This document shows positions 4,526-34,209 of a stretch of 64,000 nucleotides of DNA, one piece after another. Every line of letters begins with the position of its first letter. The first letter of the stretch is position 1. The position numbers and the translations under genes were made by a program. The notes beneath the pieces were generated by a model. It searched no databases and was not told where the DNA came from. It saw nothing but the letters and a program-made list of their open reading frames with translations. The DNA comes from Escherichia coli (GTDB taxonomy: Bacteria; Pseudomonadota; Gammaproteobacteria; Enterobacterales; Enterobacteriaceae): NCBI GenBank assembly GCA_009729775.1, contig GCA_009729775.1_4081.1, one strand, 5' to 3'.

Positions 4526-4834
4526 TTATTCCTTGATATTGATTTTAATATCTTTACCTTGTAAATCACGAATAGTTTTAATTAATGCATCATGTTTTAA
4601 AGCACATTCGTTGTATACTGCATCCCAACGAGTAAGTACTTTAAGAATTTCTGCACCATCATAACCTTTAAAACCATTTTTGTCAATCATAATTTTTTGT
4701 GGTAGAGGTGTATCATCATCACATCTTTCTAACAGAATTTCTTGTTTAATTGGTGCAGGGGATTGTAGTTTTACTTGTTCTGCACATCCACTTATAATTA
4801 AAAAAGAAATAAACGGAACTAATAATTTTTTCAT
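4526..4834 (-). CDS. putative o-spanin (outer-membrane lipoprotein, Rz1-like), 102 aa
   Basis: N-terminal signal with lipobox LIISGC; directly follows and overlaps the i-spanin-like gene. Confidence 0.5.
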   Translation of the reverse strand: MKKLLVPFISFLIISGCAEQVKLQSPAPIKQEILLERCDDDTPLPQKIMIDKNGFKGYDGAEILKVLTRWDAVYNECALKHDALIKTIRDLQGKDIKINIKE

Positions 4835-5205
4835 TTGAATTTATTCCTCGCAGCTTGAGAATTTTGTTTTAGTTCATTCAGTACTTTTACACCATCTTCA
4901 TCTAAACATACATTCTTATAAACTTCACGTTCTACAATAAAAGGAACTTTTGTTTCAATAACTTTAGCATTATCTTCCATGATTTTTTTAGTTTCAAGGT
5001 AATTTTTTGCATTTTCTTGTTGCATTTTATCTAAGGCGGTATCAACTTTTTTAGCTATTTGTTGCTCTATGCTTTGTTGATAGCCACTGTAATAAGTATT
5101 AGCTTCCCAGCCAGCATAAGCTGAACCGCCAATCAATAATACAAAAGAAATTGGTTTCCAAAATGGAATAAGAATTTTTGAAACAATTATTTCTAACATA
5201 CTCAT
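4831..5205 (-). CDS. putative i-spanin (Rz-like), 124 aa
   Basis: single N-terminal TM helix (WKPISFVLLIGGSAYAGW) followed by charged helical region; ATGA-type overlap with lipoprotein gene. Confidence 0.5.
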   Translation of the reverse strand: MSMLEIIVSKILIPFWKPISFVLLIGGSAYAGWEANTYYSGYQQSIEQQIAKKVDTALDKMQQENAKNYLETKKIMEDNAKVIETKVPFIVEREVYKNVCLDEDGVKVLNELKQNSQAARNKFK

Positions 5206-24309: not shown

Positions 24310-24476
24310 AATTTATAACCCATTACAGGTTTGGTATGATCCGGTTCGTAAGACTTTTCAGTACTGAACCCTCTGAAATTACCACGACCTGGATTCGGGC
24401 AAGCCATTCCTTGTACTGAATGCTTACCCTTATCTTTGCCACAATTTTTACATTTGTAGTCAATTACTTCTTTCAT
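24306..24476 (-). CDS. small zinc-ribbon-like protein (56 aa), not in ORF track
   Basis: hand translation MKEVIDYKCKNCGKDKGKHSVQGMACPNPGRG...; ATGA overlaps with both neighbours. Confidence 0.4.
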   Translation of the reverse strand: MKEVIDYKCKNCGKDKGKHSVQGMACPNPGRGNFRGFSTEKSYEPDHTKPVMGYKL

Positions 24477-24721
24477 TGTGCATCCTTCGGAACAGTATTA
24501 AGACGTTTGCGATTCACAATCTTCCTGCACATGAGGTTAAGATCTTGCCCATGACGCATAGTATGACATGCGTATAGTGTTCCTTGATGATTTAGTTTTG
24601 TTAAACCTTGACGGATGATTTCAGCATCCATCTCATCAACTTTAGGAGCACAACCACAGAGAATAATGGATACAAATATTGTTAATGTAATGAATATATT
24701 TTTCATGATATTTTTTCTCAT
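24473..24721 (-). CDS. small lipoprotein (82 aa)
   Basis: signal peptide with lipobox ILCGC. Confidence 0.5.
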   Translation of the reverse strand: MRKNIMKNIFITLTIFVSIILCGCAPKVDEMDAEIIRQGLTKLNHQGTLYACHTMRHGQDLNLMCRKIVNRKRLNTVPKDAQ

Positions 24722-31989: not shown

Positions 31990-32586
31990 TTAATACTTTA
32001 AAACATCAAACTCGGCACTTACACTAGTTACATTATCACTGACAATTTTAAAAATTGATTTGATGCGTTCATGTAGTGGCACTTTTGATTCATTTTCAAC
32101 TTCAATATATGCTTGCATTGCTGCAATAGCATGATATGTTCCGCTACCTACGGCGGTGATTCGTGTTTTCGGTTGAAGAACTGAAAAATCTTCTTGAACT
32201 TCATAAATTGTATGATTGTGAAGAATGATGAACTGTCCACCACCTACTTCTTGTGAAGGATCACGAGAACCCCATTCCTCTTTGAACATTTGACGAATAA
32301 TAGGAATAACTTTCAGTACTAAGTACTGTGGAAACGTCTCATTTGCATCTTGCTGTGGTAGATTCAAACTGTAAGTAAGAAGTTGACCCATACGGAATGA
32401 TGTGGTGTAACCAATCGCCATAATTTCTTTTGTACGGGTCAAACCAGCATCATCATTGATTTTAATGAATTCTTTCTCAAATACTTTAGGCTCAGTTTGA
32501 ACGGACTTTGTGAACCCGTTACTTCCCAGTTTGTCCCCTGCAATAAAAGAAGTTACACCATCAGTGTGTGCAATGATACATGTCAT
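31990..32586 (-). CDS. HslV/proteasome-beta-like Ntn-hydrolase peptidase (~198 aa)
   Basis: start set to ATG 32584-32586 giving N-terminus M-TCIIAHTDGVTSFIAGD (cf. HslV TTIVSVRRNGHVVIAGDG, Thr1 nucleophile after Met removal) and RITAVGSGTYHAIAAMQA (cf. HslV LIAIGSGGPYAQAAARA); comparison with HslV from memory. Confidence 0.6.
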   Translation of the reverse strand: MTCIIAHTDGVTSFIAGDKLGSNGFTKSVQTEPKVFEKEFIKINDDAGLTRTKEIMAIGYTTSFRMGQLLTYSLNLPQQDANETFPQYLVLKVIPIIRQMFKEEWGSRDPSQEVGGGQFIILHNHTIYEVQEDFSVLQPKTRITAVGSGTYHAIAAMQAYIEVENESKVPLHERIKSIFKIVSDNVTSVSAEFDVLKY

Positions 32587-32843
32587 AAAATAGCTCCAAT
32601 TGCAAATAAAGTTGTATATAAAATATAAATCAATGTACCTAATAACATTAGACACACCAAATATGATGTTGCCAGAACATAATAAATTATTGCTTCAAAC
32701 TTTGAATTGAACTTCATTGTTGTGTTATCAATAAAGCCATTTTTGTAATCTTTGTAAATGAAAACTGTTAGGAAAAGTACAGTAATATACATCACTACTG
32801 TAGCATAAAAAATAATAGATGTCAAATTTTGGATGTTTGTCAT
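32583..32843 (-). CDS. small membrane protein (86 aa, ~3 TM)
   Basis: hydrophobic helices; stop overlaps the HslV-like start (ATGA). Confidence 0.5.
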   Translation of the reverse strand: MTNIQNLTSIIFYATVVMYITVLFLTVFIYKDYKNGFIDNTTMKFNSKFEAIIYYVLATSYLVCLMLLGTLIYILYTTLFAIGAIL

Positions 32844-32913: not shown

Positions 32914-33522
32914 TTATTGTTTGACTGAACCGTAAAAAACCAGTTCTGGTTTTGTTAATATTACAACATCTTCACCACGCGAACGGCTAACTTTATATAG
33001 AACGTCTGGTGGAATTCCATTTGCAGAATATAGTGTAAATAGAAAACCTACTTTAGTTGCCATTTCTTCAGTAAAAGTTGATAGCTGCCTAACTGATACA
33101 AAAGAATTATCACCGTCTTTAACATTACTTTTAATAGAAATGTTATGAAGTCCCAGTACTGAGCGATTTATCATGTATCGCTTTTCAAAAGCTACACTGA
33201 AGAATACCACAGTACATGCTGAGTTGCAATACCTAGAAACAATTAAATTTATACCATTGTCTCTAACGAAGTTTGCCATTTTAATCCCAGCATCAAAATC
33301 ACCACCTGGCGATGTGATGGTAATGGTATCATAGTGTTCTTTATCATACAACTCCATCATACGCTTTAGTGACCCATCCGTAATATCTGAGATGAAATAT
33401 ACATTACGTGTTTCAGGATTGTACTTTATCACATTTTTACTTTCAACACCAGCACTGGCTGGAAAATTTATCAACATCAGAAGCATTACTGCTTGTACTA
33501 CCTCAAGCCATAGTCTTTTCAT
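32914..33522 (-). CDS. secreted ClpP/S49-fold serine peptidase-like protein (202 aa)
   Basis: signal peptide MKRLWLEVVQAVMLLMLINFPASAG; core ITSPGGDFDAGIKMANFV...CNSACTVVF...VLGLHNIS resembles the ClpP/SppA/NfeD pattern. Confidence 0.55.
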   Translation of the reverse strand: MKRLWLEVVQAVMLLMLINFPASAGVESKNVIKYNPETRNVYFISDITDGSLKRMMELYDKEHYDTITITSPGGDFDAGIKMANFVRDNGINLIVSRYCNSACTVVFFSVAFEKRYMINRSVLGLHNISIKSNVKDGDNSFVSVRQLSTFTEEMATKVGFLFTLYSANGIPPDVLYKVSRSRGEDVVILTKPELVFYGSVKQ

Positions 33523-33555
33523 AACAAATCCTTAATTTTGGTTAGGAAGATATAA

Positions 33556-33585
33556 ATAATATAGTACTTAAACACTTAAGTCAAA
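33556..33585 (-). promoter_or_regulatory. sigma70-like promoter TTGACT-17-TATTAT for the 33.5-28.0 kb operon
   Basis: minus-strand TTGACT (plus 33579-33584) and TATTAT (plus 33556-33561); AAGGA RBS before ATG 33520-33522. Confidence 0.4.
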
Positions 33586-33703: not shown

Positions 33704-33835
33704 ATGGGGGAACCAATCGCAGGACAAGACCAATTTCCATTCACTTTAGGTGGATATTTAGTTGACGGTGTAAATATAAAAGGTACAACAATCTGTAAAA
33801 GTAGTTGTTTATTAATAAGAGGAAATAAAATATGA
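33704..33835 (+). CDS. small upstream ORF (43 aa) translationally coupled to 33832..34209, not in ORF track
   Basis: AAGGAG RBS 8 nt before ATG 33704; stop TGA overlaps the downstream ATG (ATGA). Confidence 0.4.
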   Translation: MGEPIAGQDQFPFTLGGYLVDGVNIKGTTICKSSCLLIRGNKI

Positions 33836-34209
33836 AAGCTATAGCAGCACAAGGTAAATTACCATTCAATATCGGCGGCTTTTGTGTAACCGCCGCTAAT
33901 ATAAACGGTGAATTGAAATATAACTTGAACATCTTTAATCAACGTTCTAGTTGTGTTTACGATCTTATCGACACTGATTTTAATGTTTATCGTTTTGTAA
34001 CTATAACAAGTTTTGATAAAGATAAAATCAGATTAGATGCAACTAAAACTGCACTAGAGATTGCACCAACTTTAGCAAAAAATACTTTTTGTATTAAGAT
34101 TGATGATAGTGCATTTGCCGAATCATTCCAGTTTCATAAAATTAAATTGAGTACTGGAGAAATGAAATATCACCCTTGGGATTTGTATTATTGTAACATC
34201 CCTGGTTAA
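33832..34209 (+). CDS. hypothetical protein (125 aa); the only clear plus-strand gene
   Basis: GAGGAAA RBS; bounded by a bidirectional terminator. Confidence 0.6.
   Translation: MKAIAAQGKLPFNIGGFCVTAANINGELKYNLNIFNQRSSCVYDLIDTDFNVYRFVTITSFDKDKIRLDATKTALEIAPTLAKNTFCIKIDDSAFAESFQFHKIKLSTGEMKYHPWDLYYCNIPG

Follow-up and report, generated by a model that had tools for sequence, protein, structure and literature searches.

A predicted exported ClpP-fold Ser/His peptidase, gp473, encoded away from the head genes of a 121Q-like jumbo phage

The stretch of DNA analysed here, called the window throughout, comprises 64,000 nucleotides of contig GCA_009729775.1_4081.1 from the Escherichia coli assembly GCA_009729775.1, and carries on its minus strand a gene, gp473, for a predicted exported peptidase of the ClpP fold. 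The 5 kb around the locus are 99.4% identical to Escherichia phage 121Q, a 348.5-kb Asteriusvirus belonging to the Rak2-like jumbo myoviruses, and the window protein is 100% identical to 121Q gp473, whose name is used here. The open reading frame (ORF) starts with ATG, is preceded by a Shine–Dalgarno sequence (Table 1) and encodes a product of 202 amino acids (aa); no alternative start was found upstream of the ATG. PHROG 26024 matches the protein over its whole length (E 9e-119), and 49 phage records contain a homologue (Asteriusvirus, RaK2/K64-1, Erwinia phage Hallingskeid, Xanthomonas phage XaC1 and one Vibrio phage). Compared with the 92%-identical copy in phage phAPEC6, the ratio of nonsynonymous to synonymous substitution rates (dN/dS) is 0.10, with 0.085 for the mature part and 0.24 for the first 24 codons. 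gp473 is a real gene, more than a chance ORF. The original prediction, made from the sequence alone, described a signal peptide followed by a ClpP/SppA/NfeD-like core and quoted the strings MKRLWLEVVQAVMLLMLINFPASAG, SPGGDFDAG, NSAC and GLHNIS; all are found in the gp473 translation, and the strand, which it did not give, is minus.

Table 1. Coordinates of gp473, its predicted elements, and neighbouring or secretory-looking genes of the window
Feature	Coordinates	Strand	Basis
gp473 coding sequence, 202 aa + stop; predicted exported ClpP-fold Ser/His peptidase	32914..33522	minus	ORF list, 121Q identity, PHROG, dN/dS
Predicted Sec (signal peptidase I, SPase I) signal peptide, codons 1–24: n-region MKR, core A11–F20, Pro21, A22-S23-A24, cleavage before G25	33451..33522	minus	rule-based scan
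Mature domain, residues 25–202, ClpP fold	32917..33450	minus	structure model and fold searches
S71-P-G-G-D75, counterpart of the ClpP SPGG oxyanion-hole loop	33298..33312	minus	S71, G73 and G74 invariant; aligned with ClpP S[PQ]GG
C99-N-S101-A-C103, predicted nucleophile Ser between candidate disulfide cysteines	33214..33228	minus	TGC AAC TCA GCA TGT; invariance; ClpP alignment
H126-N127, predicted general-base His	33142..33147	minus	both invariant; H126 aligned with the ClpP catalytic His
Shine–Dalgarno AAGGA, 6 nt before the gp473 ATG	33529..33533	minus	direct sequence reading
Weak sigma-70-like match, TTGACT-17-TATTAT	33556..33584	minus	10/12 matches, in the 309-bp divergent intergenic region
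gp474, 86-aa membrane protein, 70 nt downstream of gp473	32583..32843	minus	ORF list, annotation
gp475, HslV-like peptidase, N-terminus M-T-C-I-I-A-H	31990..32586	minus	phrog_1040 E 1.5e-24, annotation
gp464, phage ClpP	36881..37576		Pfam CLP_protease E 4e-41
gp471, Ig-domain protein	33832..34209	plus	phrog_33171
124-aa Rz-like i-spanin	4831..5205	minus	phrog_1152 E 7e-29
102-aa protein with lipobox FLIISG/C (cleavage at the stroke)	4526..4834	minus	phrog_2425 (no assigned function)
82-aa ORF with lipoprotein-type signal IILCG/C (cleavage at the stroke)	24473..24721	minus	

The N-terminus of gp473 reads M-K-R-L-W-L-E-V-V-Q, then A-V-M-L-L-M-L-I-N-F, then P-A-S-A, followed by Gly25. The ten residues Ala11 to Phe20 form a hydrophobic core (mean Kyte–Doolittle value about 2.6) within an uncharged stretch of 17 residues, and the predicted cleavage site has a helix-breaking proline at position −4 and alanine at both −3 and −1. 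Neither a twin-arginine motif nor a lipobox was found in the leader. Leaders were scored by a crude rule of our own, namely an n-region with Lys or Arg, a hydrophobic core free of charged residues, an AxA site and the absence of any other transmembrane segment, which was applied to all 103 non-overlapping window ORFs of at least 70 aa and which underlies all leader counts given here. By this rule gp473 has the make-up of a Sec-type (SPase I) signal peptide, i.e., a positive n-region, a core of 7–15 residues, a helix breaker and small residues at −3 and −1, and it alone among the 103 ORFs combines all elements without a further transmembrane segment. The other secretory-looking ORFs in the scan are an Rz-like i-spanin (phrog_1152), an overlapping lipobox protein presumed to be its o-spanin partner, and one more lipobox protein; the rule is thus able to find proteins of the envelope.

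The same leader layout is kept in 43 of the 51 core members of the family despite their sequence divergence, and among 145 remote relatives 27 have a lipobox in place of an SPase I signal, which points independently to an extracytoplasmic location for the family as a whole. All hosts named in the phage-record homologues are Gram-negative. In the AlphaFold2 (AF2) model, residues 2–19 form a separate helix, and linker residues 14–29 have a predicted local distance difference test score (pLDDT) below 50. The signal peptide of the original prediction is thus borne out at the level of the rule and across the family, and we infer that gp473 is exported and cleaved after Ala24.

The AF2 model, built from a 10-sequence alignment (mean pLDDT 79.9, core blocks 83–94), has the alpha/beta fold of ClpP, and ClpP ranks first in both fold searches. 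Foldseek aligns the model to ClpP entries of the PDB with an E value of 2.7e-8, a probability of 1.00 and TM-scores of 0.58–0.66 over about 175 columns; the top structural matches are ClpP subunits, those of heteromeric ClpP1/P2 systems among them. Within a library of viral structures, the RaK2 orthologue is the best match (TM-score 0.83), followed by assorted viral ClpP-like proteins. The long ‘handle’ helix is kept (residues 144–167). The predicted mature start, Gly25, lies only about seven residues ahead of the first core strand (residues 32–35), no helix precedes residue 49, and the Pfam CLP_protease match begins at profile position 39; the gating hairpin and helix A of ClpP are therefore absent. 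The ClpP part of the originally proposed ClpP/SppA/NfeD-like core is consequently upheld by the model and the fold searches, and the closest family is the S14 ClpP peptidases, not S49. By sequence scoring, gp473 falls below the curated thresholds of the ClpP, S49, NfeD and prohead-protease families: NCBIfam ClpP models, for example, give 18–24 bits against cut-offs of 228–251. A single-sequence phmmer search of the PDB returned only GFP-like proteins (E 0.03–1) through a short NFPA..GPV..K..KY.P.T string, and these matches were rejected as spurious.

Invariant throughout an alignment of 35 sequences, which reaches down to 25% identity, are Ser71, Gly73, Gly74, Cys99, Ser101, Cys103, His126, Asn127, Tyr165 and Pro171. 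Ser71, Gly73 and Gly74 belong to the counterpart of the SPGG loop, which provides the oxyanion hole in ClpP. When the 35-sequence profile is aligned to PDB entries, C-a-S-a-C of the family lies over A-A-S-M-G or V-A-S-A-G of ClpP and l-g-l-H-N lies over I-M-I-H, from which Ser101 and His126 fall on the catalytic Ser and His of ClpP. In the AF2 model, Ser101 opens the helix of residues 101–109 directly after the strand of residues 92–99, and His126 follows the strand of residues 122–125. The third member of the ClpP triad, Asp171 (E. coli mature numbering), is aligned by hhalign beside Glu184/Asp185 of gp473. No invariant or nearly invariant lysine occurs in the 35-sequence alignment, which rules out the Ser/Lys arrangement of S49 and NfeD peptidases. 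The alignment check called for by the original prediction, Ser/His or Ser/Lys, is settled for the former, and the putative catalytic group is best described as a Ser/His dyad in a ClpP fold.

The predicted nucleophile is flanked by the only two cysteines of gp473, Cys99 and Cys103, located at Ser−2 and Ser+2 and both invariant. The C-x-S-x-C motif occurs in all 51 core matches and in 142 of the 145 remote ones (193 of the 196 proteins inspected). Even cysteine counts are a hallmark of disulfide-bonded exported proteins, and among remote relatives shorter than 320 aa the mature region has two cysteines in 58 and four in 38, with three in 18 and five in 4. The pattern suggests that Cys99 and Cys103 may form a periplasmic disulfide that braces the nucleophile turn.

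The extent of the family was estimated by a profile search over 1.84 billion cluster representatives, which gave 2,718 matches at E ≤ 1e-3; 67 of them reached E ≤ 1e-10 and 13 reached E ≤ 1e-30, these last being the phage-type family of 200 aa. Ordinary proteins of the ClpP clan may be among the weakest of the 2,718, and inspection covered the top 150. Remote relatives are mostly 220–290 aa long, align to gp473 residues ~10–130 (E 1e-9 to 1e-15), and have an unrelated C-terminal half. Their common features are S-x-G-G, C-x-S-x-C and a histidine 23–25 residues after the serine; the downstream histidine is present in 138 of 142 motif-bearing remote matches, and the motif residues are invariant across 100 remote sequences. 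gp473 carries all four features of this superfamily, S-x-G-G, C-x-S-x-C, the downstream histidine and the predicted N-terminal export signal. The remote relatives that bear a name are chromosomal and annotated as ‘hypothetical protein’ (WP_274701086 of Vibrio aestuarianus, WP_219172905 of Ferrimonas balearica and WP_189355024 of Undibacterium squillarum). Among 100 remote relatives scanned, 14 match CLP_protease and 13 match NfeD1b_N (E ≤ 1e-3); no Pfam or NCBIfam model is dedicated to the family, and none reaches its cut-off on gp473. COG3904, a ‘predicted periplasmic protein’ family, was considered as a candidate identity for the bacterial relatives; the papers that contain the term lend this no support, and the lead was set aside. 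The bacterial neighbourhoods are heterogeneous, with no recurring theme, and therefore permit no guilt-by-association inference. Closer to gp473, a pattern scan derived from the 10-sequence alignment found in IMG/VR only 121Q itself and three matches at 26% identity, and in GTDB representative genomes nothing; from the empty GTDB scan, close relatives look confined to jumbo phages. One IMG/VR match, L011, was rejected as a relative, being an ordinary cytoplasmic ClpP-like protein with neither signal peptide nor cysteine pair.

One bacterial neighbourhood may be described in its own right. On the Vibrio aestuarianus chromosome (locus L006, 914..6753), a remote C-x-S-x-C relative (P0043) lies beside a radical S-adenosylmethionine (SAM) enzyme, a 61-aa ORF, an HlyD-like protein and a C39-peptidase ATP-binding cassette (ABC) exporter. 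This arrangement resembles a cluster for a ribosomally synthesized and post-translationally modified peptide (RiPP) or bacteriocin, located between transposases; a single case, it hints that some bacterial members of the family process exported peptides.

The phage genes around gp473 belong to an accessory, metabolic and counter-defence region. In 121Q, gp473 is flanked by genes for a dCMP deaminase, a small opposite-strand virion Ig-domain protein, the 86-aa membrane protein, the HslV-like peptidase, Sir2, Nudix and PhoH. RaK2, Hallingskeid, XaC1 and two metagenomic jumbo-phage contigs, the latter with core members at 34–36% identity, share a module of DNA ligase, ClpP, dCMP deaminase, an opposite-strand virion gene, the protease, NMNAT/NUDIX and NAMPT. 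Sir2 and Nudix lie farther downstream in four of these five related loci (not XaC1), Acb1 is present in three of the five, including both metagenomic contigs, and cREC and PhoH are found in the two metagenomic contigs. No homologue is adjacent to portal, scaffold or capsid genes, or lies between portal and capsid genes, in any of the six loci examined (121Q and the five above). In phAPEC6, the 92%-identical homologue gp346c is not among the 62 virion proteins identified by mass spectrometry, and its neighbour gp347 is in the virion proteome with 75% coverage (PMC7247149). The T4 gp21-like ‘prohead core scaffold and protease’ of phAPEC6, gp227c, is a separate gene beside those for the major head protein, scaffold and portal; the prohead protease of RaK2 is gp092. 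gp473 is non-structural and non-packaged. On the timing of its expression, nothing was found in the literature or omics data, where the absence of its homologue from the phAPEC6 virion proteome is the sole experimental datum.

The account that we consider probable, while keeping appreciable doubt about the whole of it, is that gp473 is a non-structural, Sec-exported, SPase I-cleaved, disulfide-braced and ATP-independent periplasmic peptidase that uses Ser101 and His126. The protein would be made, probably from its own promoter, and not packaged; the host Sec system would export it, and signal peptidase I would cut after Ala24. In the periplasm, Cys99 and Cys103 would probably be oxidised to a disulfide bracing the nucleophile turn, and the mature protein would act as a ClpP-fold serine peptidase through the Ser101/His126 dyad without ATP. 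The periplasm contains neither ATP nor an AAA+ unfoldase, and gp473 has neither the gating hairpin nor helix A; it therefore cannot work as a Clp machine. If active, it would have to work unaided, in the manner of SppA, cleaving peptides or those stretches of periplasmic or envelope proteins that are exposed and unfolded.

gp473 may be compared with several known systems. ClpP (MEROPS S14, PF00574) is a heptameric or tetradecameric barrel that works with a cytoplasmic AAA+ unfoldase. gp473 shares with it the SPGG loop, the serine at a strand–helix turn, the histidine ending the next-but-one strand in the same register, and the handle helix. Unlike ClpP, gp473 has a predicted export signal, which argues against access to ClpX or ClpA and would place it in a compartment without ATP or either unfoldase; the triad Asp is not conserved, the gating hairpin and helix A are missing, and its invariant cysteines replace the Ala and Gly around the ClpP serine. 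The nearest functional analogy is SppA (protease IV, MEROPS S49), which is likewise of the ClpP fold and acts on peptides independently of ATP with an extracytoplasmic active site. SppA, however, is membrane-anchored and larger, with tandem or extended domains, and uses a Ser/Lys dyad where gp473 has His126 at the base position; gp473 has no Pfam S49 match, and its structural similarity to SppA is lower than to ClpP. NfeD-type proteases such as Pyrococcus horikoshii 1510-N also place a ClpP-fold domain after an N-terminal signal or transmembrane segment. They use Ser/Lys and have further transmembrane segments, a C-terminal OB-fold domain and a stomatin gene partner, whereas gp473, at 202 aa, has no further transmembrane segment and no stomatin neighbour, and matches NfeD1b_N weakly (E 0.15, 12 bits against a cut-off of 40). 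ClpP-related or S49-type prohead proteases (NCBIfam NF045542; PHROG 94) are phage-encoded ClpP-fold serine peptidases with weak profile similarity to gp473; those enzymes are cytoplasmic, encoded between portal and capsid genes, and located in or acting on proheads. Similar in design are the unnamed bacterial C-x-S-x-C proteins, which share SPGG, C-x-S-x-C, a histidine about 24 residues on and a signal peptide or lipobox, and differ from gp473 in their length, chromosomal location and heterogeneous contexts.

Several observations weigh against gp473 being an exported and active peptidase. The rule behind the export call is crude, and some N-terminal hydrophobic run is found in 16 of the 103 window ORFs. 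Glu7 and Gln10 of the leader, invariant in the ten closest sequences, are unusually conserved for a signal peptide, which could indicate that the helix is not removed or has another function as well. The Pfam CLP_protease match scores 16.7 bits, below the gathering threshold of 20.2, and covers profile positions 39–116 of 182; the match of the 35-sequence profile to ClpP of the PDB, which accords with the fold result, is weak (E ~1e-3); and hhalign of the 10-sequence profile against single ClpP sequences gave probabilities of 3–11% with an ambiguous register around the serine, a register superseded by that of the 35-sequence profile. The Glu184/Asp185 columns are variable in the family (D, K, R, Q, T, S, N, G) and no acidic residue is invariant; with the triad Asp not conserved, activity of gp473 is not guaranteed.

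Four other explanations were considered. If the leader were an uncleaved N-in signal anchor, the catalytic domain would be tethered to the outer face of the inner membrane and would meet membrane-proximal substrates, as in SppA and NfeD. The conservation of Glu7 and Gln10, mostly kept in the 35-sequence set as well, is unusual for a disposable leader and would be explained, as would a hydrophobic region without an AxA site in 4 of the 51 core members. An uncharged stretch of 17 residues with a 10-residue core, Pro21 and a textbook A-S-A site nevertheless fits a cleaved leader better than a transmembrane span of at least 20 residues, and an AxA or SSA site is kept in most of the family; we regard the anchor as unlikely. 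A shade less likely again is an exported ClpP-fold hydrolase whose substrate is small or not a protein (stem peptides of peptidoglycan, an ester or an amide), or a binding protein or pseudo-enzyme. The absence of a conserved acidic third residue or lysine, a family without any characterised member and the heterogeneous bacterial gene contexts all leave room for it, against which stand a serine and a histidine exactly at the ClpP positions, the retained SPGG loop, and Ser/His invariance over the roughly 150 diverse relatives inspected, which argues for catalysis.

The remaining alternatives keep gp473 in the cytoplasm. It might be a ClpP paralogue that mixes with the phage ClpP gp464 or with host ClpP, in the way of ClpP1/ClpP2, its N-terminus not being an export signal: every lineage has a canonical phage ClpP gene at a distance of 3.4 kb, and the best structural matches include heteromeric ClpP1/P2 subunits. 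We consider this highly improbable, given a signal-type N-terminus throughout the family with lipoboxes in some relatives, the invariant cysteine pair and even-cysteine bias, the non-conserved triad Asp, and a mature N-terminus that, with the Pfam match starting at position 39 of 182, is too short for the docking or gating hairpin and helix A. A role as prohead (capsid-maturation) protease or scaffold is effectively refuted. It could draw on the weak match to the NCBIfam Clp_rel_HeadMat model (NF045542; E 4.9e-4, 20 bits against a cut-off of 120) and on a few GenBank homologue records labelled ‘head maturation protease’; the gene order of all six loci, the phAPEC6 virion proteome with its separate gp21-like gp227c beside the major capsid and portal genes, the use of gp092 by RaK2, and a signal peptide incompatible with cytoplasmic prohead assembly all contradict it. 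The labels of gp473 homologues are inconsistent in general, and range over ‘hypothetical protein’, ‘protease’, ‘head maturation protease’, ‘ATP-dependent Clp protease proteolytic subunit’, ‘ClpP/crotonase-like domain protein’ and, for CRJP21, ‘nudix hydrolase’; the head-maturation, ATP-dependent and nudix labels are mislabels, unsupported by the present evidence.

If gp473 is a periplasmic Ser/His peptidase as we favour, its role can be proposed only tentatively. Two roles are about equally likely, each possible without being favoured: gp473 could remodel envelope proteins or receptors of the host, or defence or signalling tied to the envelope; or, like SppA, it could clear or scavenge peptides and unfolded proteins of the periplasm while a long jumbo-phage infection proceeds. 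The remainder falls to other roles. Envelope remodelling could, if true, destroy receptors or an entry route, giving superinfection exclusion, or disable envelope-anchored defence or stress sensors. The superinfection-exclusion and envelope-processing roles of gp473 are speculation, and PADLOC assigned no defence-system family to gp473, gp474, gp475 or the phage ClpP. Unlikely as a whole is a broader proposal, in which gp473 would give first tractable access to a large, uncurated family of ClpP-fold Ser/His peptidases that are exported, braced by a disulfide, gate-less and independent of ATP; jumbo phages of the Rak2/121Q clade would use it from inside the cell for proteolytic remodelling of the envelope on its periplasmic side.

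Phages are known to place holins, spanins, endolysins and a few exclusion proteins in the host envelope. Among open-access papers and bioRxiv preprints, we found no precedent for a phage-encoded periplasmic or exported ClpP-like protease and no periplasm-directed proteolytic strategy of a lytic phage. A comparative survey of jumbo phages regards the ClpP of these phages as probably host-directed and does not mention an exported protease. If exported and active, gp473 would add periplasmic proteolysis to the means by which lytic jumbo phages manipulate their hosts. A ClpP fold without ATPase, gate or Asp, and with a Cys-x-Ser-x-Cys nucleophile turn, would be a distinct protease design, shared by about 140 inspected bacterial and metagenomic protein clusters out of up to ~2,700 matched, with no curated model or known function. 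The label ‘protease (ClpP-like)’ is already attached to gp473 in GenBank and RefSeq, and the ClpP-like protease call itself is not new; it is the predicted export signal, together with the C-x-S-x-C signature and a large bacterial family without characterised members, that makes gp473 a reasonable experimental target. The phage Sharanji (92% identical) grows on E. coli K-12, and the role of gp473 is therefore testable. None of the three outcomes that the original prediction named as refuting it (no predicted signal peptide, missing catalytic residues, homologues between portal and capsid genes) was obtained. In sum, the observation is confirmed and its interpretation supported, to the limit of sequence and structure analysis.

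The neighbourhood in the window bears on further points of the original prediction, which had made gp473 the first gene of an accessory operon and had counted three protease folds in the window, all outside a capsid-maturation setting. A divergent intergenic region of 309 bp lies upstream, and gp473 is the first gene on the minus strand beyond it; the operon start is plausible. The promoter motif there is not above chance (20 sigma-70-like sites against 15.5 ± 2.8 in shuffled sequences), and the downstream partners vary by lineage. The three folds were counted correctly: the phage ClpP gp464 and the HslV-like gp475 are both real (Table 1), and the prohead protease is encoded elsewhere, beside the major head and portal genes. 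gp474, which has no Pfam or PHROG family match, is not linked to the protease in other lineages. The ATG of gp475 overlaps the gp474 stop codon (ATGA), which suggests translational coupling of a membrane protein and an N-terminal nucleophile (Ntn)-type peptidase; by analogy with HslV, Thr2 of gp475 would become the nucleophile after removal of Met. No HslU-like gene was seen in the ~30–40 kb part of the window examined. In other lineages NMNAT and NAMPT lie downstream of the protease, and no conserved linkage therefore ties it functionally to the HslV-like gene.

The position that NMNAT and NAMPT, enzymes of NAD+ salvage, hold in the five related loci (L002, L003, L004, L007 and L018) is taken by gp474 and the HslV-like gene in 121Q and the other Asteriusviruses, which looks like accessory cargo swapped at a fixed genomic site. 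Divergent from gp473, gp471 forms a lone plus-strand structural-gene island within a minus-strand array of non-structural genes, and its phAPEC6 counterpart gp347 is confirmed in the virion; several lineages have a Big_2/Ig-like virion gene, of opposite strand, ahead of the protease. Elsewhere in the window, the overlapping genes for the 124-aa and 102-aa products look like the phage i-/o-spanin pair. The 82-aa ORF with a lipoprotein-type signal has no PHROG match and may encode a small phage lipoprotein, a class that in other phages includes receptor-blocking and exclusion proteins.

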